DNA of 64,000 nt from Mariprofundaceae bacterium (GCA_050301755.1 JBNKZS010000002.1:8534-72533), one strand, 5' to 3'; counted from the stretch's first letter, positions 24,734-36,595 are shown. Program-made: numbers and translations. The notes: generated from the letters alone by a model not told the origin.

Positions 24734-25828
24734 TCACTTGGCGCAGGTAACACGATTGCGGCCGTTCTCCTTGGAGTTATAGAGCGCCTGATCAGCCCGC
24801 TTCAGAAGTTGCGTTGCTTCATTCTGGTCGCTTTTGGGATCGCTCTCATGCCAGGCAACAACACCGAGGCTGATGGTGATAGCGGTCATCTGCTGCCGGC
24901 CATGTTCAAAGGTGTGCTGGGCGATGCTCTCGCGAATGCGCTCGGCCAGTTGGGAGGCCCCTTTAAGGGATGTTCGCGGAAGCAGGATGGTAAACTCCTC
25001 ACCGCCATATCGGAAAAGGTAGTCACAATCGCGTAACATCAGACGTACGGCTTGAACCAGCTGCTTTAAGACAGCGTCACCGGCGTCGTGACCCCGATCA
25101 TCATTGATCTGTTTGAAGTGATCAATGTCGAACATGACCAGTGAAAAGGTGGCGCCGTAGCGTTCGGTCAGGCGATGCTCCTGCATGAGAAGCTGATTGA
25201 AATAGCGGCGATTATAGGCGCCTGTCAGGGCATCGGTGATAGCGATCTGCTCCAGCTCCCTGTTCATGTCTTCCAGTGCAGCTGTGCGTTCTGCTACCTT
25301 TTTTTCCAGCAGTGCATTGGCCTCTTCCATCTGCTGGTTAAGTTGCGCATTGTGAATGGCAACGGTCGCCTGAGATGCCATTGCCCGAATCAGTGTTTCA
25401 TCCTCTTTGTTGAAGGGCTCGACACGTGAACGCATGGCCTGAATGACACCATAGAGTTGCCCGGCTCCATCCAGTAGAGGGACACAGAGCATGGAGCGGA
25501 CGGGATAGGGTGTTGATTCGCCTTCGACCTTGGCAAGGTAGAGGCGGGAGTCGAGCTGGGCATCTTCGATGTTCAGAAGTTCCTTGTTGCGGGCGACCCA
25601 CCCTATCACACCTTGGTCCATGGGAACTTTCAGCTCTTTTTCGTGAATGCCCTGCGCCACTTTTGACTGCAGGCAGTTCTCATCCCCATTGACCAGAAAG
25701 AGGCTGGTTCGGTCGGCTTTGATAAGGTGGCTGGTCTGCTCAATGATGAGGTTGAGGAGCCGATCGAGATTTCGTTCGGAGCTTAACTGCGTTGCAATAT
25801 CGAGCAGGCGTTCAATGGCAAGCATCAT
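24734..25828 (-). CDS. GAF domain-containing diguanylate cyclase
   Basis: 364 aa with an N-terminal GAF domain, a coiled linker, and a GGDEF domain with an intact RYGGEEF active site. Confidence 0.88.
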   Translation of the reverse strand: MMLAIERLLDIATQLSSERNLDRLLNLIIEQTSHLIKADRTSLFLVNGDENCLQSKVAQGIHEKELKVPMDQGVIGWVARNKELLNIEDAQLDSRLYLAKVEGESTPYPVRSMLCVPLLDGAGQLYGVIQAMRSRVEPFNKEDETLIRAMASQATVAIHNAQLNQQMEEANALLEKKVAERTAALEDMNRELEQIAITDALTGAYNRRYFNQLLMQEHRLTERYGATFSLVMFDIDHFKQINDDRGHDAGDAVLKQLVQAVRLMLRDCDYLFRYGGEEFTILLPRTSLKGASQLAERIRESIAQHTFEHGRQQMTAITISLGVVAWHESDPKSDQNEATQLLKRADQALYNSKENGRNRVTCAK

Positions 25829-26592: not shown

Positions 26593-27414
26593 TTATTCGC
26601 GCAGCAGTTCGGTGATGCCGGTTTTGGAGCGAGTCTTCTCATCCACCTTCTTCACAATCACGGCACAGTAGAGGTTCGGTCCCCCGTTCTTGCCCGGCAT
26701 GGAACCGGAAACCACAACAGAGTATGGCGGTACTTCACCATAGTAGGTTTCACCGGTTTCTCGGTCGTAGATACGAGTCGATTTACCAATGTAAACGCCC
26801 ATGGAGATCACCGAACCTTCACGAACAATAACACCCTCTACAACTTCGGAGCGGGCACCAATGAAGCAGTTGTCCTCAATAATGGTCGGAGTGGCCTGCA
26901 GCGGTTCAAGTACGCCACCGATGCCAACGCCGCCGGAGAGGTGAACATTCTTGCCGATCTGGGCGCATGATCCGACGGTCGACCAGGTATCCACCATGGT
27001 GCCTTCATCGACATAGGCGCCGATGTTGACATAGGAAGGCATCAGCACGGTCTTCGGCGCAATATAGGCCCCCTTACGTACTGTCGCAGGAGGTACCACG
27101 CGCATACCGCCCTTGCGAAACATATCTTCGCCCCAATTGGCGAACTTCTGCGGTACCTTGTCGAAATAGTTGGTGGAAGCGCCGCCAATCACCTGATTGT
27201 CATGTAGCTTGAAGTAGAGAAGAACGGCTTTCTTCAACCATTCATTGGTAACCCATGTGCCGTTGCTGTCACGCTCGGCAACTCGAACGCCACCATCATC
27301 CAGCAGTTGAATGGATCGCTCAATAGCTTCACGAACTTCGGTTTCAACGTTGGACATGTTCCATCCGTCGCGGTTGTCCCAGGCTGATTCAATAACTTCT
27401 TGCAGGTGATTCAT
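26593..27414 (-). CDS. dapD: Tetrahydrodipicolinate N-succinyltransferase
   Basis: 273 aa with a left-handed beta-helix hexapeptide region and a DapD-type N-terminal domain. Confidence 0.95.
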
Positions 27415-27588: not shown

Positions 27589-28719
27589 ATGCAGGTAGCT
27601 ATGCCTGATGCTCCTTTCGATTTTACCGTCTTTTCTTCCGACTATGTCTCGGCCCGGGCTGCTTTTTTACATGCGACCGACAAATGTGGAGCAATACTTT
27701 CAACCTATTCTCATCCGTTTACTGGCCCTGATGGCGAGGCACTGGCGACCGATACGGTATGGCTAGGGCCCAGGGATGCGGAACGGGTGTTAGTATTACT
27801 TTCTGCTACACATGGTGTAGAGGGCTTTTGCGGTTCTGCTGCTCAGGTTGATTGGCTCAGGCTCTATTCTGACAAGAAAGATACACTCCCGGAAGGGATT
27901 GCCTTGCTCATCATCCATGCACTCAACCCGCACGGTTTTGCCTGGCTGCGCCGGGTCACCGAGCAAGGGGTTGATCTTAATCGCAATTTTGTCGATTTCT
28001 CACAGCCCACCCCCGAAAATGACGGTTATGTGGAGCTTGCAGCCTCGATTATCCCAGGCAACTTGAGACACGAGACGCTCAAGATGGCGGATGCGAAGCT
28101 GAGGGAGTATGCCGAATTTCATGGTCAGGTTGCGTTCGAGGCGGCGCTATCTGGTGGACAGTTTACCCATGCAGACGGCCTCTTTTACGGGGGGGTGGAA
28201 CCGACCTGGTCGCGTCTCACTACGGAGGCGATAGTTAAGGATTTCCGGTTGCATGAGCGCCGACGGGTCGCGGTTCTGGATTTTCACACCGGTCTCGGGC
28301 CTTTCGGATACGGTGAGCCGATCTGCGATCACTTTCCCGGTACCCTCGGCCTTGCACTTTCCCGTAAATGGTACGGGCAATCCGTGACAGAACCGGCTAT
28401 CGGAACCTCCAGTTCGGTAGCCAAAACGGGGCTTTCCGATTATGGCTGGCAGAAGATGCTTGGTGATGTCGTGGTCTTCATTGCTCTGGAGTTCGGCACC
28501 TATCCGTTCGATAATATGATACGTGTTCTTCGCGGCGATCACTGGCTTCATGCACAGGGGTCGGTTGATTGGCATGCAGAACAGACGCAGTCCATCAAAG
28601 CCGAAATACGAAGACACTTCTATCCTGCCACTCGCGACTGGCAGCAGATGATCCTATTCCGTACCCGCCAGTGTATTTCTCAGGCGCTTGATGGACTTGC
28701 TCTGGAGATCGGCAGTTAA
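27589..28719 (+). CDS. M14-family zinc carboxypeptidase-like protein (DUF2817-type)
   Basis: 376 aa with the zinc motif HGVE (HxxE), NPHG, DLNRNF and a downstream LDFHTG histidine. No signal peptide is evident. Confidence 0.75.
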   Translation: MQVAMPDAPFDFTVFSSDYVSARAAFLHATDKCGAILSTYSHPFTGPDGEALATDTVWLGPRDAERVLVLLSATHGVEGFCGSAAQVDWLRLYSDKKDTLPEGIALLIIHALNPHGFAWLRRVTEQGVDLNRNFVDFSQPTPENDGYVELAASIIPGNLRHETLKMADAKLREYAEFHGQVAFEAALSGGQFTHADGLFYGGVEPTWSRLTTEAIVKDFRLHERRRVAVLDFHTGLGPFGYGEPICDHFPGTLGLALSRKWYGQSVTEPAIGTSSSVAKTGLSDYGWQKMLGDVVVFIALEFGTYPFDNMIRVLRGDHWLHAQGSVDWHAEQTQSIKAEIRRHFYPATRDWQQMILFRTRQCISQALDGLALEIGS

Positions 28720-28789: not shown

Positions 28790-29647
28790 ATGGCGACCGG
28801 TATTCTGGTGATTCTCGATGATGTACTGACCATGACCAAGGTGGCAGCAAAGAATACAGCCGGGATTCTCGGTGATGACCTTGCTGTCAACGCCGAGAAG
28901 GCGACCGGCTTTATGGCTTCTCGGGAGCTGCCGGTGATCTGGGCGATCACCAAGGGCTCCTTTATCAACAAACTGATCATATTGCCATTTGCCTTTCTGC
29001 TCAGTGCTTTTGCGCCGTGGTTGATTGTTCCGGTTCTGCTGCTTGGTGGTACCTACCTCTGCTTCGAGGGTGCCGAGAAGGTGGCGGAGTGGATTTTCGA
29101 ACATGAGCATGAACACATTGCAGCTGAGGATAGCGATGACCCTGCAGAGATTCTCGCGCAGGAGGCAGGCAAGATCAAAGCTGCGATCCGTACCGATTTC
29201 ATCCTCTCCATCGAGATTGTTGTGATTGCACTGGGGAGTGTTGTTGAAGCCACCCTGATCAAGCAGATCATCGTGGTCAGCGCCATCGCCGTACTGGCAA
29301 CCATCGGGGTGTACGGGATCGTCGCGATGTTGGTGCGAATGGACGATGCCGGCATTCATTTGCTGGGTCGTGCCGGTGGCCGGACTGATTCGGCTGCGAA
29401 GATGATGGCGATAACCGGAAGGGTGCTGGTGGCCTCTCTGCCAAGACTTATTGCGCTACTCGGTGTTGTCGGAACGGTTGCCATGCTGCTGGTCGGTGGC
29501 GGCATCTATGTGCACAACCTTCCGTTCGTACACCATGCGCTCGACTTCATGCCATGGCTTCTGGCTGATTTTGTCGCCGGATTGATCGTCGGTGCGGTGA
29601 TTCTGGGGTTGCTTCAGCTGAAAGGCGCCTTTTTTCCCAAGGCTTGA
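28790..29647 (+). CDS. DUF808 (YedI-like) inner-membrane protein
   Basis: 285 aa starting MATGILVILDDV...TKVAAKNTAGILGDDLAVNAEKATGF, followed by several TM helices. Confidence 0.8.
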   Translation: MATGILVILDDVLTMTKVAAKNTAGILGDDLAVNAEKATGFMASRELPVIWAITKGSFINKLIILPFAFLLSAFAPWLIVPVLLLGGTYLCFEGAEKVAEWIFEHEHEHIAAEDSDDPAEILAQEAGKIKAAIRTDFILSIEIVVIALGSVVEATLIKQIIVVSAIAVLATIGVYGIVAMLVRMDDAGIHLLGRAGGRTDSAAKMMAITGRVLVASLPRLIALLGVVGTVAMLLVGGGIYVHNLPFVHHALDFMPWLLADFVAGLIVGAVILGLLQLKGAFFPKA

Positions 29648-29683
29648 TTACTCCCCCTCCATTGATTCAAAGGTGAGCGACAT

Positions 29684-31177
29684 TCAGCTGTATCGTGAGG
29701 CCTCGATGCGCCGGATGAACTCCTGCGTGATTTGAGTGTAAAGCTCGTTTTTCAATACTTTGTCTTCAACTCCATGGTCGATACTGGGATTATCGTTTAT
29801 CTCAATCACAAAAACGCCTTGATCCGTCTCTTTCAGGTCGACGCCGTAGAGGCTGCTGCCGATCAGGTCCGCCGCCTTGATGGCGGTCTCAACCACATGT
29901 GACGGAGCCTTTTCAACAGGCATGGTTTCAAAACCGCCGTAGGTGGCCGTGCCATCTCCCTTGTGATTGACGATCTGCCAGTGGCCGCGCGATGCTCGGT
30001 ACTGGCAGGCATAGAGTGGCCTCCCATTGAGAATGCCGATGCGCCAGTCGTAAGCCGTATACATGAACTCCTGTGCCAGAATCAGGCGGGAGTTACCGAA
30101 CAGGTTGGTGGCAGCCTCCCTTACCTGTTCTTTGTTACTGGCTTTGACCATGCCTCGCGAAAAGCAACCATCCGGAATCTTCAACACCATCGGATAGCCG
30201 ATCTGCTCCTCCAGCATGCTGATGGCGAGATCATCGAAGGTGGCCCGATTCAGCGGAATGGTCAGCGGTGTCGGCAGGTTATGGGTATTGAGTCGCTCCC
30301 ACATGTAAACCTTGTTGGTACAGCGAAGGATGGATTTGGAGTCATCTATCACCGGAATCCCTTCGGCCTCCGCCTTACGGGCAAAGCGGAAGGTGTGATT
30401 GTCCAGAGCCGTGGTTTCACGCAGAAAAAGAGCATCGAACTCCGAAATTCGGTGGTAATCCCTGGCCTGAATAAGCTCGACATCCATGCGTAGTGCCTTG
30501 CCAGCTTTGATGAAGCGGTGAATCGCCGCTTCATTGGAGGGAGGCATCTTTTCATGGGGATTAACCAGAATGGCGAGATCATACACGGCCGGCTTGCGAC
30601 TGCTCCGTTTGCGCTCCGAAAGCCGGGTGTAGTGTCGAATGCTTTGCTCAAAAAATGCTGCCAGTTCACCTTTAACCTTATCCAGTCCGAGCGGCCGGAT
30701 CGACTTGATCTCCCAGCTTTTTCCTTTTACCAGACGCATCCTGATCAGCGGGTAGCGGAAGAGATCAAACAGTTCAGAAGCCAGCTTGCTGAATCGATGA
30801 TCGTCAGCCTGTCCGAAAAAGATATGCAGAGTGAAAGCATCTTCCGGTGGTTCGCTTAGTCGCTGGATGGTTTTGTATAGCAACAGATTCAGTTCGGGTA
30901 AGGCAAAGGCATAGAGGCTACGCCGTGACAGGTCCAGAATATCGGCAACGGTTGGCATGGGCAGGTCATTGCGAGCTTCTGCCAGCAGGGAGCTGTAATA
31001 CCCTGCACTCAGATAGGAGTAGCGACGGCAGAGGTTGATGATACGCATCGGCCGCTTTTGCGGACGTGTCCAGCGCGTTAGATATTCGTCAGCTTCGAGG
31101 ATACGGAGCCCCTCAATATCCCATTTCCAGTCAGCTTCGCGGTCAACAACAACGGTGTGTCGAGGGTTAAGACTCAT
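29684..31177 (-). CDS. RimK-family ATP-grasp ligase with a ~200-aa N-terminal extension
   Basis: 497 aa. The C-terminal ~290 aa are ATP-grasp (VLKIPDGCFSRGM, DWRIGILNG, GVDLKETDQGVFVIEINDNP). The N-terminal region is unassigned. The start overlaps the upstream stop in an ATGA arrangement. Confidence 0.8.
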   Translation of the reverse strand: MSLNPRHTVVVDREADWKWDIEGLRILEADEYLTRWTRPQKRPMRIINLCRRYSYLSAGYYSSLLAEARNDLPMPTVADILDLSRRSLYAFALPELNLLLYKTIQRLSEPPEDAFTLHIFFGQADDHRFSKLASELFDLFRYPLIRMRLVKGKSWEIKSIRPLGLDKVKGELAAFFEQSIRHYTRLSERKRSSRKPAVYDLAILVNPHEKMPPSNEAAIHRFIKAGKALRMDVELIQARDYHRISEFDALFLRETTALDNHTFRFARKAEAEGIPVIDDSKSILRCTNKVYMWERLNTHNLPTPLTIPLNRATFDDLAISMLEEQIGYPMVLKIPDGCFSRGMVKASNKEQVREAATNLFGNSRLILAQEFMYTAYDWRIGILNGRPLYACQYRASRGHWQIVNHKGDGTATYGGFETMPVEKAPSHVVETAIKAADLIGSSLYGVDLKETDQGVFVIEINDNPSIDHGVEDKVLKNELYTQITQEFIRRIEASRYS

Positions 31178-32277
31178 GCCTTCTCTTCTCTTTTCTCAAT
31201 CAATATTGCCGCGTACTGGCGGCTTTTACCATAACGGGTCATGCGCTCAAATTCGGCACGTGGAATAGGGATGCCGATACAGGTGGTTTTGGTCTCTCCC
31301 TCTGCCGCATCGACATAGGGTTCGTTAAAATAGATAAAACGTTCATCGAATCCGCTTATGACGACCCAGTGCGGGGATTTGTCACCGGTTAGTCGGTAAG
31401 AGCTGATCAGGATGATGGGAATCGCCCCTTTTCGGAAATGTTTCTCCATTTCCTCAGAAGTTAGTGGTCGGTCACGCATGCGGATGTCGGATCGGCCGAT
31501 CTCACGGATAAAGTCTTTCTGCACGACACGGATCACCTCGCGTTTCTCCTCACTGCGTACCGATTCTACAAACATCTCAGGGTCTTTGCGTACGAAGAGC
31601 GATACTTTGTAACCGCGTTGATGAGCCGATAAGGCGAGGCCATAGGGACTGCAGCCGCCATGTCCGGAGGTCATGAAGATACTGGTTGCCTCACGCCAGA
31701 GCCTGAGTTCAAGGATTCGGTCGAGTTTCAGTTTCGGTGAAAGGGCTTTCATTGCCATCATCAGGCAGGCCGGGCCGCAGGTGAACTCTAGCGTTTGCGG
31801 GTAGAACGGAACCGGTGAATTTTTGGCAGTCAGGTGCGGGACCAGCTCTTTCTCAAAACGAATTGCATCACCATGGTCCTCATAATAATCGGCTACGGTC
31901 GCGAATTCGCGATAGTTGAAGGCACGGTAAAGTGCTTGAGCACTTACATTCTTGGTGTGTACTTCCAGCCGCATGGAGACCATGCCACGGGCCAGAGCGA
32001 TCTTCTCTGCCGCTGCAATCAGGGATTTTCCTGTTCCCTTTCCTTGATAGTTCGGATCTACGGCCAAGGAATAAAGGCGGGCAATGGATGTGTTTCGGTG
32101 GAAAAGCACCATGATATAACCGAAGAGAGTATTTTGACTCTCTTCGACGAGTGTTACCGCATGGCCACGGGTCAGCAGATAACGAAAATTCCGTTCAGAG
32201 AGCCGGTCAATATCGAAACAGCGGTTTTCGATTTCAGTAAGGGCCGGAATGTCAGCGGATACGGCTGTGCGGATCAT
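31174..32277 (-). CDS. GNAT N-acetyltransferase fused to a C39-like cysteine peptidase domain
   Basis: 367 aa. The RimI-like GNAT half has the acetyl-CoA motif YQGKGTGKSL. The C-terminal half has FTCGPACLMMAM (candidate catalytic Cys) and SPHWVVISG (candidate His). Confidence 0.8.
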   Translation of the reverse strand: MIRTAVSADIPALTEIENRCFDIDRLSERNFRYLLTRGHAVTLVEESQNTLFGYIMVLFHRNTSIARLYSLAVDPNYQGKGTGKSLIAAAEKIALARGMVSMRLEVHTKNVSAQALYRAFNYREFATVADYYEDHGDAIRFEKELVPHLTAKNSPVPFYPQTLEFTCGPACLMMAMKALSPKLKLDRILELRLWREATSIFMTSGHGGCSPYGLALSAHQRGYKVSLFVRKDPEMFVESVRSEEKREVIRVVQKDFIREIGRSDIRMRDRPLTSEEMEKHFRKGAIPIILISSYRLTGDKSPHWVVISGFDERFIYFNEPYVDAAEGETKTTCIGIPIPRAEFERMTRYGKSRQYAAILIEKREEKA

Positions 32278-32368
32278 CAGGGTTTGATGCGATGTATAAA
32301 GGGGTTAACCATGCGCAATTCTATATTCCGCACATGGTTAACTGTAAATCAAATTTTACAGGGGTGTG

Positions 32369-33568
32369 TTAAAGTACAATCTCCTCTGGGCGCGCATGGC
32401 TGAGGAACTCCTGATTAGACATGGTCAGACCGTAGGCTCCAGCCAGTCCGAAGATAGCTATATCGCCGATGTCCGCAGCTTCGACATAAATATCATTGGC
32501 CAGCTTGTCGGCACTGGTACACAAGGGGCCGCCGAAGTAAACCTGTTCCCTTGCTACGGACTCCTGCCCGTCAAACAGTCTGGCATCGTGCATGCGGACA
32601 ATGGCCAGCGGATGGTTAATGGAAAGGGCTGCGGGCCTGCGGAAATGGTTGATGCCTCCGGCACAGACGACCTGCTTCTTCCCGCGACTCTCTTTGATAT
32701 CGAGAATCTCAGTGCAGAAAAACCCAGAGTCGGCAGCCAGATAGCGGCCCAGTTCCAGTACAAAGTGGCGGCCTTCAAAACCGTACCTGGCAATCATGTC
32801 AGCCAGGCCATCGGCATAGGCCTGAGGGTCGAAGTCATGTCCTTCTTCGAGGTAATCGACGCCGAACCCGCCACCAAAATCGATAATGTCACAGCTGACA
32901 CCGGTATATCCTGCTTCGATCTTTTTCGTCAGGTCAAAGACCAGTTCGCAGTTTTTCAGCAGGTCTCCCACGTTCAGTACGCCGGATGCGGCATAGACAT
33001 GCAAACCACGGAAGTTGAGATGCTCCAGAGCCAGTATCTGAGGTAGAGCCTCATCCAGCTTCTCTTCATCAATTCCGAACTTCTTGCTACCGCCGGAGAA
33101 GGTGGTTTGCGCTTCGTGGATATCGAAGTTTGCATTGATGCGCAGCAGCACATCCATCTGCTTGCCCGCCTCTGCACAGATTGCATTGAGGCGATGGGCT
33201 TCGGCAAGTGATTCGATGTGCACAGTGCGTACACCGTTTTGAACACTCCAGCGCAGCTCTTCCGGCGACTTTCCCGGACCGGTATAGATCAATCGATTGG
33301 CGGAAAAGCCTGCAGCTACAGCACGCTCGGCTTCGCCAAGACTGGCAATTTCGATGCCGACAGCCCCTGCTTCAAGGGCCGCAGCCAGAAAGGCCGGGTG
33401 CGGATTGGCTTTCATGGCGTAAAAGACTTCCAACCCCGCCGGCATGATAGAGACAAGGTGACCGATCTTCTCGCGCATCGGAGCGGTGTCGTAGATATAG
33501 CAGTTGACTGTTTTGCCAATTTCGGCCCGGCGACGGATTTCGGCTTCGATATGTGTTGGAATATTCAT
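32369..33568 (-). CDS. Type III PLP-dependent decarboxylase (Orn/DAP/Arg decarboxylase family; LysA-like)
   Basis: 399 aa with the PLP-lysine motif FYAMKANP, GGGFGV, and the C-terminal GPLCTSADKL motif. It lies 2 nt downstream of dapC. Confidence 0.75.
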   Translation of the reverse strand: MNIPTHIEAEIRRRAEIGKTVNCYIYDTAPMREKIGHLVSIMPAGLEVFYAMKANPHPAFLAAALEAGAVGIEIASLGEAERAVAAGFSANRLIYTGPGKSPEELRWSVQNGVRTVHIESLAEAHRLNAICAEAGKQMDVLLRINANFDIHEAQTTFSGGSKKFGIDEEKLDEALPQILALEHLNFRGLHVYAASGVLNVGDLLKNCELVFDLTKKIEAGYTGVSCDIIDFGGGFGVDYLEEGHDFDPQAYADGLADMIARYGFEGRHFVLELGRYLAADSGFFCTEILDIKESRGKKQVVCAGGINHFRRPAALSINHPLAIVRMHDARLFDGQESVAREQVYFGGPLCTSADKLANDIYVEAADIGDIAIFGLAGAYGLTMSNQEFLSHARPEEIVL

Positions 33569-33570
33569 GG

Positions 33571-34773
33571 TTAAACTCTGACGGCTTTGAGTCTTTTGGC
33601 CAGTTCTGCAGCTTTTTCCGGACCATCCACGAGAGCAGCCCGCACGTAACCTGTACCCGGATTGATGCCATCGGCGTCATTTGCGCCCAGATAGGAGCCG
33701 GGAAGCACGGTTACATGCTGTTGCTCCCATGCAGCCAGCGCGAACGTCTCTTCGCTTCCTTTGGCCTCGCCCACCTTCAGCCATACGAAGAAGGAGCCTT
33801 CCGGGATATCACCACCATAGACGTCGAAAAATGCCTTCAGGCTATCGCGATAAACTGCCAGATGGCGTTGGACGTGGACTTCATCCGACCAGGCAGCAGC
33901 AGCAACAGCCTGCAGTGGTAATGGTGTGGCAGGGCCGGTATAGCTACGTAGTTTGGAGAAGCGTTTCAGCAACTTCGCATCACCCGCAATCAGTCCGGAG
34001 CGCATGCCCGGAAGGGCCGAGCGTTTGGAAAGAGAGTTCATGACGATACAGCGGGCATAGTCATTGCGACCAAGCCTCTGTGCCACCTCAAGGAGTCCGA
34101 GAGGTTTTTTCTGCCAGTAGATCTCCGAGTAGCACTCGTCGGAAACAATGGAAAAATCGTAGCGATCAGCCAATTCAAGCAGCTTGCGATAATATGCCTC
34201 ATCAGCAATCCACCCAGTTGGATTCGATGGTGAGCAGACATAAACCAGGGCCGTTTTCTGCCATACATGCTCAGGCACAACGTCCAAATCAGGGGCAAAG
34301 CCGCTTGCTTCCGTACAGGGCAGGAAGAAGGGTCGAGCCCCCGCAGTATAGGCCGCTCCCAGATAGATCTGGTACATTGGGTTGGGCATCAGTACATAAG
34401 GTTTTGGTTCTGCCTCGGGATTGATCAGCGCATGGGCGATGGCGAAGAGCGATTCGCGAGTGCCATTGGCCGAAAGTACCTGTGTAGCAGGATCGACTTG
34501 TTCCAGTCCGTAGCGTCGTTTAAGCCAGGCCGCGATTGCACTCTTCAGTTCAGGTCCGCCAACTGTTGACGGGTACTTGGAGAAGCCGGATATATTGTTG
34601 TTCAGTGTGTCTGCCACAAAATCGGGAAGTGGCAGGCGCGGTTCACCGGCACCGGCATCAATATGGTTAAGGTCACGGTTGGCAGTGCGGTCTTCAAACA
34701 GCTTTTTCAGTCGTTCAAACGGATAGGCACCCAGCATATCAAGCCGGGGCTGCAAAAGTTTGTCAGCGCTCAT
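33571..34773 (-). CDS. dapC: Succinyldiaminopimelate aminotransferase (beta/gamma-proteobacterial DapC type)
   Basis: 400 aa with the N-terminus LDMLGAYPFERLKKLF and the PLP-lysine motif SLSKRSALPGMRSG. Confidence 0.8.
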   Translation of the reverse strand: MSADKLLQPRLDMLGAYPFERLKKLFEDRTANRDLNHIDAGAGEPRLPLPDFVADTLNNNISGFSKYPSTVGGPELKSAIAAWLKRRYGLEQVDPATQVLSANGTRESLFAIAHALINPEAEPKPYVLMPNPMYQIYLGAAYTAGARPFFLPCTEASGFAPDLDVVPEHVWQKTALVYVCSPSNPTGWIADEAYYRKLLELADRYDFSIVSDECYSEIYWQKKPLGLLEVAQRLGRNDYARCIVMNSLSKRSALPGMRSGLIAGDAKLLKRFSKLRSYTGPATPLPLQAVAAAAWSDEVHVQRHLAVYRDSLKAFFDVYGGDIPEGSFFVWLKVGEAKGSEETFALAAWEQQHVTVLPGSYLGANDADGINPGTGYVRAALVDGPEKAAELAKRLKAVRV

Positions 34774-35200: not shown

Positions 35201-36595
35201 TTATGACTCCGACTTTATAGCTTCAAATAGTGCTTTCCAGGCAGCGCACTGTTGCCGTACCTGCTCAGGGGCGGTGCCGCCGATATGGTTGCGAGCAGCA
35301 ACACAGGACTCAACAGAGAGCTGTTGAACCATCTCGGCAGTCAGCCGCGAATCGATGGACTGGCATGTTGCATGATCCATCTCATGCAGTTCACAGCCGG
35401 CCTTGATGCAGTGGCCAACAGACTTGCCGACAATCTCATGGGCTTCACGGAAGGGAACGCCGGCACGTACTAGCGCATCGGCAAGATCCGTGGCTGTCGA
35501 AAAGCCGGAGGCGGCCGCTTTCAGCATGGCTGCTTTGTTGACCTTGATGCCCGGTAACATGTCACCGAAGACACGCAGGCTTCCTTCCAGATTGTCGAAG
35601 GCATCGAAAACCGCGCCCTTGTCTTCCTGCATGTCCTTGTTATAGGCCAGCGGCAGGCTTTTGACGGTGGTCAGCATGGCAACAAGCCCGCCAATGATGC
35701 GGCCGGTCTTGCCGCGAACCAGCTCCGGCATGTCAGGGTTCTTTTTCTGCGGCATAATGGATGAACCGGTACAGAAGGCATCCGGAAGGTCGACAAAGCT
35801 GAACTGTGAACTCATCCAGAGGATCAGCTCTTCGGAAAAGCGTGAGAGATGAACGGCGCAGATCGAACATGCTGCCAGCAACTCCATAATAAAATCACGG
35901 TCGGACACGGCATCCAGCGAGTTGGTGCAGGGGCCGTTGAAACCGAGCATTTCGGCTGTCTGGAAGCGGTTGATGTCGAAGGTGGTGCCGGCCAGGGCAG
36001 CCGAGCCGAGAGGTGACTGGTTCATCCGTTCACGGGCATCGAAGAAGCGGTCCATGTCGCGCTCGAACATCTCAACATAGGCAAGTAGATGGTGGCCGAA
36101 GGTGACCGGCTGGGCTGTCTGCAGATGGGTAAAACCGGGCATGATCGTATCGGCATGGGTTTCGGCCAGATTGACCAAAACGGCCTGCAGGGTGTGAATG
36201 CGGGCAATGACATCATCCGTTCTTCTGCGCAGATAGAGGCGGGTATCGGTTGCCACCTGGTCATTTCTCGAACGGGCGGTATGCAGTTTTTTGCCGGCAT
36301 CGCCGATGCGATCGGTCAGGCGCTTTTCAATGTTCATGTGCACATCTTCAAGTTCAATGGTGAACTCGAATTCGCCGCGTTCGATCTCCGCTTCGATCTC
36401 CTGCAGTCCGCTAATGATGGATGAGAGCTCTTCGTCGGTCAGAATGCCTTGTGCATTGAGCATGGTGGCATGGGCCCGGGAACCGGCAATATCTACGGCA
36501 TACATGCGGGCATCGACATCAATGGATGCATTGAAAGCTTCTACAAAGCTGTCGGTCGGGGCATCAAATCGCCCACCCCAGGGTTTATCAGACAT
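35201..36595 (-). CDS. argH: Argininosuccinate lyase
   Basis: 464 aa with the fumarate-lyase signature [12 protein letters not shown]. Confidence 0.96.

Follow-up and report, generated by a model that had tools for sequence, protein, structure and literature searches.

A conserved GNAT-DUF3335 and RLAN-RimK-type ligase gene pair with a possible role in making an N-acetylated glutamyl peptide

The 64,000-nucleotide stretch of Mariprofundaceae DNA analysed here (the window) contains two overlapping genes, one encoding an acetyltransferase fused to a papain-fold domain and the other a RimK-type ATP-grasp ligase with an additional N-terminal domain, and comparison with homologous sequences supports the view that they form one functional unit. 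By analogy with known systems we tentatively propose, with a probability of roughly 0.4, that the unit would N-acetylate a short acidic peptide and glutamylate its C-terminus at the expense of ATP, while two hydrolases trim the product. The architecture is already catalogued, through the Pfam families RLAN (PF14401) and DUF3335 (PF11814) and through the NCBI names ‘RimK family protein’ and ‘GNAT family N-acetyltransferase/peptidase C39 family protein’, whose bearers are 54-90% identical to the window proteins. This catalogued pair is identical to ours in domain architecture and gene pairing, while the window copy adds a DUF2817 gene nearby, with an unrelated DUF808 gene standing between it and the pair. 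Iyer, Abhiman, Burroughs and Aravind reportedly made a computational prediction of this gene pair and architecture in 2009. PMC10318531 discusses the DUF3335-GNAT fusion, citing Iyer et al. 2009. Our search of the literature on RLAN, the DUF names, the NCBI names and RimK combined with GNAT found no experimental study. An earlier sequence-only reading of this DNA knew of no characterised member with this exact architecture, and indeed we found none, but the architecture itself was already on record. Klebsiella CfmP, also considered, is a TupA-like enzyme unrelated to the pair.

Both genes lie on the minus strand, a detail absent from the sequence-only reading, which had correctly placed open reading frames of 367 and 497 aa. 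The first, at 31174..32277, is the GNAT-DUF3335 (C39-like papain-fold) fusion gene, called from the open reading frame, Pfam matches (PF00583 and PF11814) and an AF2 model; the second, at 29684..31177, is the RLAN-RimK-type ligase gene, called from the open reading frame, Pfam and NCBIfam matches and an AF2 model. The proposed ATGA stop/start overlap, a translational coupling arrangement, can be read directly at 31174..31177 on the minus strand, and the purine-rich GAGAAGG lies just upstream of it. The ligase is 100% identical to a public protein (P0001), and in the public collection the exact window proteins are unnamed entries. Upstream of the fusion gene, a 91-bp spacer holds a stable hairpin (32304..32342, minus strand; a 13-nt inverted repeat, 92% complementary, with an RNA MFE of -22.5 kcal/mol and z of -4.3), a predicted feature that may bound the transcription unit. 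A promoter scan of 29500-32500 returned 0 sigma-70-like sites, and terminator-like matches in the same interval did not exceed shuffle expectation.

The case for a functional unit comes from the breadth and constancy of the association. The genes and their motifs far exceed what chance could produce. The two homologue searches gave 6872 and 5455 matches at E<=1e-5, and relatives occur in at least 597 species genomes. Across the 80 loci from other species that were kept for comparison, the GNAT gene adjoins the ligase in 78, spanning Zeta-, Alpha- and Gammaproteobacteria and others, in two orientations (33 co-directional, 45 divergent). Some organisms go further and encode GNAT, RLAN and ATP-grasp in a single chain (P0308, P0367) or GNAT joined to RLAN (P0284, P0302, P0339). 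The overlap, the adjacency and the fusions together tie the RLAN-ligase to a GNAT gene, often one of the GNAT-papain-like type, and the co-occurrence that the sequence-only reading needed is borne out. That reading had also joined three activities, to acetylate, ligate and cleave. The acetylase and ligase core stands, but cleavage falls outside the obligatory core because 25 of the 80 loci have a GNAT gene lacking the C39 half; the GNAT is C39-fused in 52 and split from C39 in 1, and about two-thirds of lineages thus carry the papain-fold domain on the acetyltransferase. Beyond the pair, de novo clustering of neighbours in the 80 loci recovered only lineage-specific synteny; the Pseudomonas neighbours, for example, are a CorA-like protein, a PLP enzyme, a glucose dehydrogenase and an Asp/Asn hydroxylase, and share no common theme. 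When 580 small intergenic ORFs were clustered in search of a precursor or LysW-like carrier, none was common to more than 4 loci, and those common to up to 4 were all from Pseudomonas.

The same comparison bears on the gene directly upstream of the pair in the window, an Orn/DAP-family PLP decarboxylase (32369-33568). A trio of ATP-grasp, decarboxylase and papain-like enzymes works jointly in CTA and butirosin biosynthesis (PMC7183216), and the adjacency could suggest a thiotemplated pathway of the butirosin/closthioamide kind. We find this scarcely credible: the closest relative (L001) has no such decarboxylase, and the only match among the 80 loci (L067) is weak (27% identity, 54 bits) and lies about 1 kb past the ligase on the opposite strand, an arrangement unlike that of the window. 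There is no carrier protein (PCP) gene, the strong hairpin separates the decarboxylase from the pair, and the flanking dapC, dapD and argH indicate a housekeeping LysA-like enzyme. With neither decarboxylase nor carrier protein conserved alongside the pair, a Cta/Btr-type pathway is effectively refuted.

The ligase begins with a region that the sequence-only reading, which put it at about 200 aa, could not assign, and which is in fact the curated Pfam family RLAN (aa 1-195, 30593..31177, minus strand; Pfam match at aa 30-178, E 4.3e-42, 143.8 bits against a threshold of 25). The rest had been taken as about 290 aa of RimK-type ATP-grasp and proves to be a complete three-domain RimK/LysX-type module of about 300 aa (aa ~196-497, 29687..30592, minus strand), identified by profile matches and Foldseek, with PF08443 at 36.6 bits against a gathering score of 21. 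All 81 aligned homologues keep this layout, RLAN and then ATP-grasp. The RLAN family numbers only 687 representative clusters, and its invariant positions here are N48, Y55, G59-Y60-Y61, S63, R69, P75, F121-G122, P143 and W155. Profile comparison with the PDB gave RLAN no solved relative, matching only the GNAT and ligase columns carried along from fusions, and the Foldseek matches listed for the ligase model (AF2, pLDDT 82.3) were ATP-grasp proteins only, with none for RLAN. It is probably a substrate- or partner-binding domain. The ligase module aligns by profile with LysX (3vpd), RimK (5zct/4iwx/7qys) and ArgX, ATP/Mg residues included, and superposes on RimK/LysX/ArgX over about 310 columns at a TM of about 0.8. 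K333, Q369-E370, D447, E459 and N461 are conserved and aligned with LysX; the ATP Lys and the Mg Asp/Glu/Asn place the enzyme in the RimK/LysX clade of the ATP-grasp superfamily, and the full predicted catalytic set (K333, D447, E459, N461) is kept.

The GNAT half (aa 1-150, 31828..32277, minus strand) is of RimI/NAT type by TIGR01575, phmmer against the PDB, Foldseek and conservation. Acetyltransf_1 (PF00583) matches at aa 12-121 with E 2.8e-16, three GNAT Pfam models in all exceed threshold in the fusion protein, and its AF2 model has a pLDDT of 89.4 and a pTM of 0.79. The quoted YQGKGTGKSL is real and contains the acetyl-CoA motif Q78xxG81xG83 (32029-32046, minus strand), which together with the GNAT fold identifies an acyltransferase; because that motif is retained, the domain would be an acyl-CoA transferase rather than a ligase of the Fem type. 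In BLASTP with an approximate E. coli RimI query (29% identity), the motif lines up with that of RimI, and RimI E103/N108/Y115 align with E105 (31963-31965, minus strand), N110 and Y117 (31927-31929, minus strand). Matches by phmmer were VipF-like, RimI and Ard1, and Foldseek gave a TM of 0.84-0.91 to RimI/Ard1/CBU0801. Key residues are conserved in at least 95% of 53 fusions, and the NAT-type YY...DA loop (Y131, Y132, D134, A138) is invariant in the GNAT homologues. This loop contacts the peptide backbone in NATs, and its conservation suits a substrate with a peptide or protein N-terminus more than it does a free amino acid. The domain is thus predicted to be a RimI/NAT-type, acetyl-CoA-dependent N-alpha-acetyltransferase with its catalytic set intact.

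Some annotations go further, calling these proteins ‘ribosomal-protein-alanine acetyltransferase’ and ‘ribosomal protein S6 modification protein’, as though housekeeping RimI and RimK orthologues had become neighbours by chance. This is highly improbable, since every equivalog cut-off is missed: the GNAT scores 75.8 bits against 86.4 for TIGR01575 rimI and 42.4 against 173 for PRK09491, which, given its RimI-like fold and catalytic residues, makes it NAT-like rather than a RimI orthologue, and the ligase scores 40.6 against 331 for PRK10446 and 85.9 against 143.4 for TIGR00768 rimK_fam. At 497 aa, with an extra domain and about 20% identity to RimK structures, it also departs from the RimK equivalog, which has about 300 aa and no extra domain. 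A plain S6-modifying RimK, the outcome that would have undone the sequence-only reading, is excluded by these scores and by RLAN; the C39 domain and the strict co-conservation of the pair, sometimes as a fusion, also weigh against chance neighbours.

The other half of the fusion (aa 156-360, 31198..31812, minus strand) is a DUF3335/C39-like cysteine peptidase domain (PF11814, E 3.4e-84, 281.9 bits against a threshold of 25; PF13529, E 4.2e-6). Its candidate catalytic residues, all on the minus strand, are Q161 (31795-31797), C167 (31777-31779) and H303 (31369-31371), with an acid at H+16, E319 (31321-31323), that is Asp in most homologues; D323 and the invariant loop SGHGGC (aa 204-209) also belong to the domain. 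The quoted FTCGP and SPHW are real and contain C167 and H303, respectively. Across sets of 40, 53 and 22 sequences Q161, C167 and H303 are invariant and position 319 is always D/E, which keeps the C39 spacing of Gln at Cys-6 and acid at His+16, and the PHW..DP segment aligns with BtrH-like 9quz (E 0.013) and with the double-Gly C39 structure 6mpz (E 0.27). The candidate Cys and His therefore do correspond to catalytic positions, as the sequence-only reading required, and the papain-fold domain is, judged by its residues, catalytically intact. Foldseek matches listed for the fusion-protein model were to GNAT proteins only, with none for the C39 half.

The BtrH-like structure 9quz, the best solved match to the DUF3335 profile, is probably CtaG, a protein that HHpred connects to PF11814 and that has been proven to act as a ligase (PMC7183216, PMC12865890). 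The CtaD/CtaF/CtaG and BtrJ/BtrK/BtrH systems likewise combine an ATP-grasp with a DUF3335-related papain-fold enzyme, with the His/Asp motif aligned (PMC7183216). The DUF3335 domain could accordingly be an amide-forming transacylase or transpeptidase of the CtaG/BtrH or phytochelatin synthase type, which would polymerise or transfer the ligase product, rather than a hydrolase; this would be a variant of either the peptide or the protein-terminus reading. We consider it quite unlikely: the BtrH-like match is both local and weak, and CtaG and BtrH require carrier-protein thioesters whereas no carrier gene is linked at the loci. The Cta and Btr systems also differ from the pair in that the decarboxylase is not conserved with it and its ATP-grasp is of a different (RimK) clade. 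The weak match to 6mpz raises another option, as C39 relatives remove double-glycine leaders and a protease-GNAT fusion hints at cleavage followed by capping: the C39-like domain would cut the leader of a RiPP-like precursor encoded elsewhere, the GNAT would acetylate the N-terminus so exposed and the ligase would add Glu or form another amide. This seems very unlikely. PF03412, the canonical bacteriocin-processing type, is not matched by the fusion protein, whose C39 half matches only PF11814 and PF13529; across the 80 loci the surroundings of the pair conserve no small precursor ORF, no transporter (ABC exporter) and no further RiPP gene, and a third of the systems have no peptidase.

A further putative hydrolase is encoded nearby. 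The DUF2817 gene (27589..28719, plus strand; PF10994, E 2.1e-111) has H75xxE78, DLNRNF (N131, R132), H233 and E301 invariant in 5 sequences, which we take to be the M14 HxxE and H zinc ligands, the NR carboxylate-binding motif and the catalytic Glu of an M14-like metallocarboxypeptidase. Its profile finds REP34, MpaA and carboxypeptidase N in the PDB, weakly (E 0.05-1.7), while the single sequence finds no PDB match and, against Pfam at E<=10, matches itself only and no M14 family. It adjoins the pair in 5 of 81 genome loci and accompanies it in 11 of 29 metagenome DUF2817 loci (flanks >=1.5 kb), in three gene orders, and is a facultative third component. Such a putative M14-like partner, whose NRN motif would bind a carboxylate, suggests that the product ends in a free C-terminal carboxylate.

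Under the peptide reading that we favour, the ligase would activate the C-terminal alpha-carboxylate as an acyl-phosphate and then add L-glutamate, as, to our knowledge, every characterised RimK-family enzyme does; glutamate as the added residue is assumed from that family knowledge. The GNAT would cap the alpha-amino end of the same short peptide, giving an N-acetylated alpha-glutamyl oligopeptide made from free amino acids by the logic of NAT8L with RIMKLA and of Ngg. This product would be shortened, held to a certain size or recycled by the papain-fold domain and the M14-like enzyme, which would attack it internally and at its C-terminus, comparably to what RimB does for RimK. In the NAAG (NAT8L with RIMKLA/B) and NAGGN (Ngg) systems a GNAT and an ATP-grasp enzyme likewise act in sequence to give an N-acetylated dipeptide ending in Glu/Gln, and NAA is turned over by M14-related aspartoacylase-type hydrolases. 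A small substrate common to both would lead one to expect consecutive enzymes fused in one chain, and Ngg, the one characterised GNAT and ATP-grasp fusion known to us, makes an N-acetyl dipeptide and is joined in the manner of P0308 and P0367. The absence of a substrate gene nearby, with only the pair genes conserved, also speaks for a product made from free amino acids. The resemblance has limits: our GNAT resembles RimI/NAT enzymes, the NAAG and NAGGN systems lack RLAN and C39 domains, the Ngg model TIGR03103 does not match the ligase and is faint on the GNAT protein (23.9 against 569), and no AsnO-type amidotransferase is a conserved neighbour in the 80 loci. A protease fused to an N-terminal acetyltransferase also most simply suggests ‘cleave, then cap the new N-terminus’, which runs against a small peptide.

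The nearest structural relatives of both enzymes act on proteins as well (RimI, Ard1 and Naa50; RimK on RpsF; LysX and ArgX on LysW), and this speaks for the main rival, protein-terminus modification, which is possible but somewhat unlikely. The ligase would add Glu to a C-terminal tail, an N-terminus within that protein or its complex would be acetylated by the GNAT, processing or erasure would fall to the papain-fold domain and M14-like carboxypeptidase, and RLAN would dock the target. S6 and S18 are the substrates of RimK and RimI, and the S6:S18 heterodimer is an obvious candidate, although any protein encoded elsewhere could serve. The NAT-type loop and the additional 190-aa RLAN, as a docking domain, suit this rival, as does the established pairing of RimK with a dedicated Glu-removing protease, RimB (PMC11957791). 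In that writer/eraser system, too, the ligase has a RimK-type fold with ATP/Mg residues kept and a genetically paired peptidase, and fusions occur in both, as ligase-protease hybrids there (PMC11957791) and GNAT-ligase chains here; it differs in that our ligase is distant (~20% identity, below RimK family cut-offs) and carries RLAN, its partner peptidase is papain-fold/M14-like instead of retropepsin-like, and the GNAT partner is obligatory. In both sequence and structure, LysX and ArgX rank with the closest matches to the ligase module, but it scores 81.5 against 275.6 for LysX_arch, no LysW-like small protein is linked, and that system has neither a GNAT nor a peptidase as partner. Several observations tell against a protein target: none of the 80 loci links a target gene, approximate queries for rpsF, rpsR and their paralogues found none across the window, 25 of the 80 loci do without the C39 half, and one-chain fusion of both writers is easier to reconcile with one small substrate. 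Pseudomonas already has canonical RimK with RimA/B (PMC4741518, PMC10092738), and a second S6 system would therefore be redundant there.

A bolder form of the protein-terminus reading is a reversible bacterial ‘tail code’, which we regard as unlikely, in which an NAT-type acetylase and a glutamylase would write terminal marks and a Cys peptidase and metallocarboxypeptidase would erase them; its target, as part of that joint and equally uncertain proposal, would be a conserved protein or complex such as ribosomal S6:S18. The eukaryotic tubulin tail code uses the same four enzyme superfamilies, an ATP-grasp ligase, a papain-like/transglutaminase-like Cys peptidase, an M14 carboxypeptidase and a GNAT, a parallel that also favours the protein-terminus reading in general. 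The likeness to TTL/TTLL, vasohibin, CCP and alpha-TAT1 is one of toolkit only, without orthology. If true, such a code would be a prokaryotic counterpart of the tubulin TTLL/vasohibin/CCP/alpha-TAT1 system and would span hundreds of proteobacterial species, Pseudomonas and Azospirillum included.

Overall, the window offers no new architecture; its value lies in showing the system cleanly and compactly, optional carboxypeptidase included. The pair is among the more widespread conserved enzyme pairs of Proteobacteria for which we found no experiment, and its carriers include the genetically tractable Pseudomonas fluorescens, P. chlororaphis, P. simiae and Azospirillum brasilense. With every predicted active site preserved and the two writers joined in some organisms, the system must presumably have a definite product, which would be a novel N-acetylated acidic peptide metabolite or else a post-translational tail modification, likewise new, that comes with erasers of its own. 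In both cases the repertoire of RimK-type ligases would grow, and RLAN, DUF3335 and DUF2817 would gain functions.

The pair consists of two minus-strand ORFs, a 367-aa GNAT-DUF3335 fusion (31174..32277) and a 497-aa RLAN-ATP-grasp ligase (29684..31177), joined at 31174-31177 (minus strand) by an ATGA in which the upstream stop overlaps the downstream start. Both the coordinates and the overlap agree with the earlier, sequence-only reading of this locus. A purine-rich GAGAAGG lies a few bases 5' of the overlap, and together they form a classic translational-coupling layout. The best named homologues point to a Zetaproteobacterium of the Mariprofundaceae as the source of the window. In the fusion protein, Pfam places Acetyltransf_1 at residues 12-121 (E 2.8e-16) and DUF3335, the ‘Peptidase_C39 like family’, at residues 156-360 (E 3.4e-84), with Peptidase_C39_2 matching more weakly than DUF3335. 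The N-terminal ~200 residues of the ligase, which the sequence-only reading had been unable to assign, turn out to hold a curated family, RLAN (‘RimK-like ATPgrasp N-terminal domain’, PF14401; residues 30-178, E 4.3e-42), and the remainder of the protein is a RimK-type ATP-grasp.

This architecture is already catalogued. Pfam holds both RLAN and DUF3335, the product names ‘RimK family protein’ and ‘GNAT family N-acetyltransferase/peptidase C39 family protein’ are in use at NCBI, and a 2023 classification of papain-like enzymes (PMC10318531) states, with reference to Iyer et al. 2009 (Mol Biosyst 5:1636), that DUF3335 frequently occurs fused to GNAT. Because these sources cover the domain layout, the window copy is not a new architecture; it is a further member of a family for which we found no characterised example, our literature search having returned no experimental work on any member. 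Neither protein reaches the cut-off of a characterised NCBIfam equivalog. The GNAT-C39 protein scores 75.8 bits against rimI (cut-off 86.4), and the ligase scores 85.9 against rimK_fam (143.4), 81.5 against LysX (275.6), 67.2 against MptN (350) and 40.6 against the S6--Glu ligase model PRK10446 (331), while the Ngg model TIGR03103 gives 23.9 (569) on the GNAT-C39 protein. With its PRK10446 and rimK_fam scores and the extra RLAN domain, the ligase is not the plain RimK orthologue that the sequence-only reading had named as a possible objection. Whole RimK, LysX and ArgX chains superpose on the C-terminal ~300 residues of a confident AlphaFold2 model (pLDDT 82.3) over ~310 columns at a TM of ~0.8 in Foldseek, which indicates that the ATP-grasp module is complete and that RLAN is an additional domain.

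Relatives of the ligase are widespread, with 6872 proteins at E<=1e-5 among the scored candidates and at least 597 GTDB species genomes encoding one, including many Pseudomonas, Azospirillum, Xanthomonadales, Chromatiales, Methylophaga, Marinobacter and Hahella. A GNAT gene adjoins the ligase in 78 of the 80 loci kept (the exceptions are locus L047 and a 2.9-kb contig), so the co-occurrence in other genomes on which the sequence-only reading depended is borne out. The GNAT gene precedes the ligase co-directionally in 33 loci and is divergent from it in 45. In 52 loci it is fused to DUF3335, and in one the fusion is split into two ORFs; the remaining 25, among them Xanthomonadales, P. nitroreducens and two P. 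fluorescens strains, have a free-standing GNAT of ~150-250 aa. In the split case, a Halobacteriovoraceae MAG (L042:8746-9886), the GNAT and C39 halves are two overlapping ORFs, which could mean a truly split gene, a frameshift or an error of assembly. Searching with RLAN alone recovered only 687 clusters at E<=0.001 among 1.84 billion representatives, almost all of them proteins of ~490 aa that carry RLAN N-terminally. Among these public relatives, P0308 (636 aa) and P0367 (646 aa) are single GNAT-RLAN-ATP-grasp chains, and P0284, P0302 and P0339 are GNAT-RLAN chains, all five lacking the C39 domain. These are Rosetta-stone fusions of the window's two genes, and with the adjacency in 78/80 loci they argue that acetyltransferase and ligase are one functional unit, to which the peptidase half is a frequent yet dispensable addition.

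The active sites of both proteins are retained. In BLASTP against E. coli RimI, GNAT residues E105, N110 and Y117 align on RimI E103, N108 and Y115, and Q78xxG81xG83 aligns on the acetyl-CoA motif; these residues, along with a NAT-type loop (Y131-Y132...D134...A138), show little or no variation across 40 and 53 homologues. The fusion protein is modelled confidently (pLDDT 89.4, pTM 0.79), and RimI, archaeal Ard1 and Coxiella CBU0801 superpose on its GNAT half at target-normalised TM 0.84-0.91. In the ligase, K333, Q369-E370, D447, E459 and N461 are conserved and align with LysX ATP/Mg residues. In homologue alignments of the papain-fold half, Q161 lies six residues N-terminal to C167, H303 never varies, and position 319 (His+16) always holds an acidic residue, Asp in most homologues but Glu in the window protein. 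This is the spacing of C39 peptidases. When a profile was built from 22 DUF3335 domains, its PHW...DP segment fell on the catalytic His/Asp of BtrH-like structures (E 0.013), the matched structure probably being CtaG, which serves as the papain-like ligase in closthioamide biosynthesis (PMC12865890); the profile's match to a double-glycine C39 domain was weaker. Given the spacing and the His/Asp alignment, the Cys and His that the sequence-only reading had picked out do line up with catalytic residues. GNAT and ATP-grasp matches masked the DUF3335 and RLAN parts in the Foldseek tables, and sequence searches gave no significant match to a solved structure for either part. An SGHGGC loop at residues 204-209 (window 31651-31668; H206, C209) is kept in at least 95% of 53 fusion proteins and is the only segment of the AlphaFold2 fusion model at low confidence (pLDDT <50); it might serve as a mobile lid or provide a second reactive site.

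An optional third component is the adjoining DUF2817 gene (27589-28719, plus strand), which also adjoins the pair in loci L001, L018, L041 and L062. De novo clustering of the loci kept returned no other neighbour conserved across taxa, and no common theme was found among neighbours shared within Pseudomonas. Among 80 metagenome loci sampled around DUF2817, 29 extend 1.5 kb or more to each side of it, and 11 of these have the pair next to it, in three gene orders. DUF2817 has invariant HxxE (HGVE) and DLNRNF motifs, a second His (H233) and a Glu (E301), which we take to be the zinc ligands, carboxylate-binding Asn-Arg and catalytic Glu of M14 carboxypeptidases, and its profile gives weak, consistent M14 matches to REP34, MpaA and carboxypeptidase N (E 0.05-1.7). 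In the closest relative, L081, DUF2817 is linked to dapD. An unrelated DUF808 (YedI-like) membrane-protein gene (28790-29647, plus strand) sits between DUF2817 and the ligase in the window, an arrangement that none of the other 80 genome loci shows; in L062 a DUF808 match lies ~7 kb away from the ligase.

Directly upstream of the GNAT-C39 gene lies an Orn/DAP-family decarboxylase (32369-33568, minus strand), and ATP-grasp, decarboxylase and papain-like ligase together would recall a butirosin/closthioamide-like trio (PMC7183216). We reject this, since a weak decarboxylase match occurs in just 1 of 80 loci, there beyond the ligase and on the opposite strand; no carrier protein for such a trio was found at the pair. 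The decarboxylase scores highest against the exosortase-A-associated decarboxylase model (284, cut-off 478) and 238 against lysA (298). With dapC-like (33571-34773), dapD (26593-27414) and argH (35201-36595) genes around it, it is most simply a housekeeping LysA-like gene, and these genes place the module among Lys/Arg biosynthesis functions, a context not conserved elsewhere. The decarboxylase is set apart from the GNAT-C39 gene by a stable hairpin of 13-14 perfect-looking bp in the spacer between them (32278-32368; hairpin GTTAACCATGCGC / GCACATGGTTAAC at 32304-32342; z -4.3 against shuffles, RNA MFE -22.5 kcal/mol), perhaps the terminator of the gene upstream or else an operator palindrome. 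By eye, an ORF at 24734-25828 (minus strand) combines a GAF-like N-terminal part with a GGEEF motif (RYGGEEFTILL) behind it, and it probably encodes a diguanylate cyclase. No conserved small ORF was found in the pair's surroundings, and this speaks against a RiPP precursor or LysW-like carrier encoded nearby.

The unit comprises two writers with intact active sites, nearly always together, and two optional hydrolases. Enzymes of the RimK family (RimK, MptN, CofF, RIMKLA/B, LysX/ArgX) join an ATP-activated carboxylate to the alpha-amine of Glu or a close analogue, and RimI/NAT-type GNATs acetylate peptide N-terminal alpha-amines. At a probability of roughly 0.4, the most likely reading has the pair working on both ends of a single short acidic peptide, itself assembled from free amino acids. 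The ligase would extend the peptide and the GNAT would cap its other end, giving an N-acetylated alpha-glutamyl oligopeptide by the same logic as NAT8L+RIMKLA and the fused enzyme Ngg. The main rival, which we hold to be somewhat less likely, is that the pair modifies protein termini. In its favour are the protein substrates of both writers' nearest relatives, the retained NAT peptide-binding loop and an RLAN that could serve for docking; an obvious candidate target would be the S6:S18 heterodimer, on which RimK and RimI act. The single-chain fusions and the lack of a linked substrate gene favour the acidic peptide. Trimming or recycling of that peptide would fall to the papain-fold domain and the M14-like enzyme, in the way that RimB serves RimK (PMC11957791). 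The papain-fold domain could act either by hydrolysis or by transfer, the latter being the mode of CtaG.

What deserves attention here is the whole family, not the window copy as such. The family is widespread, compact and, to judge from its conserved residues, catalytically intact, and it is amenable to direct testing in Pseudomonas or by heterologous expression.
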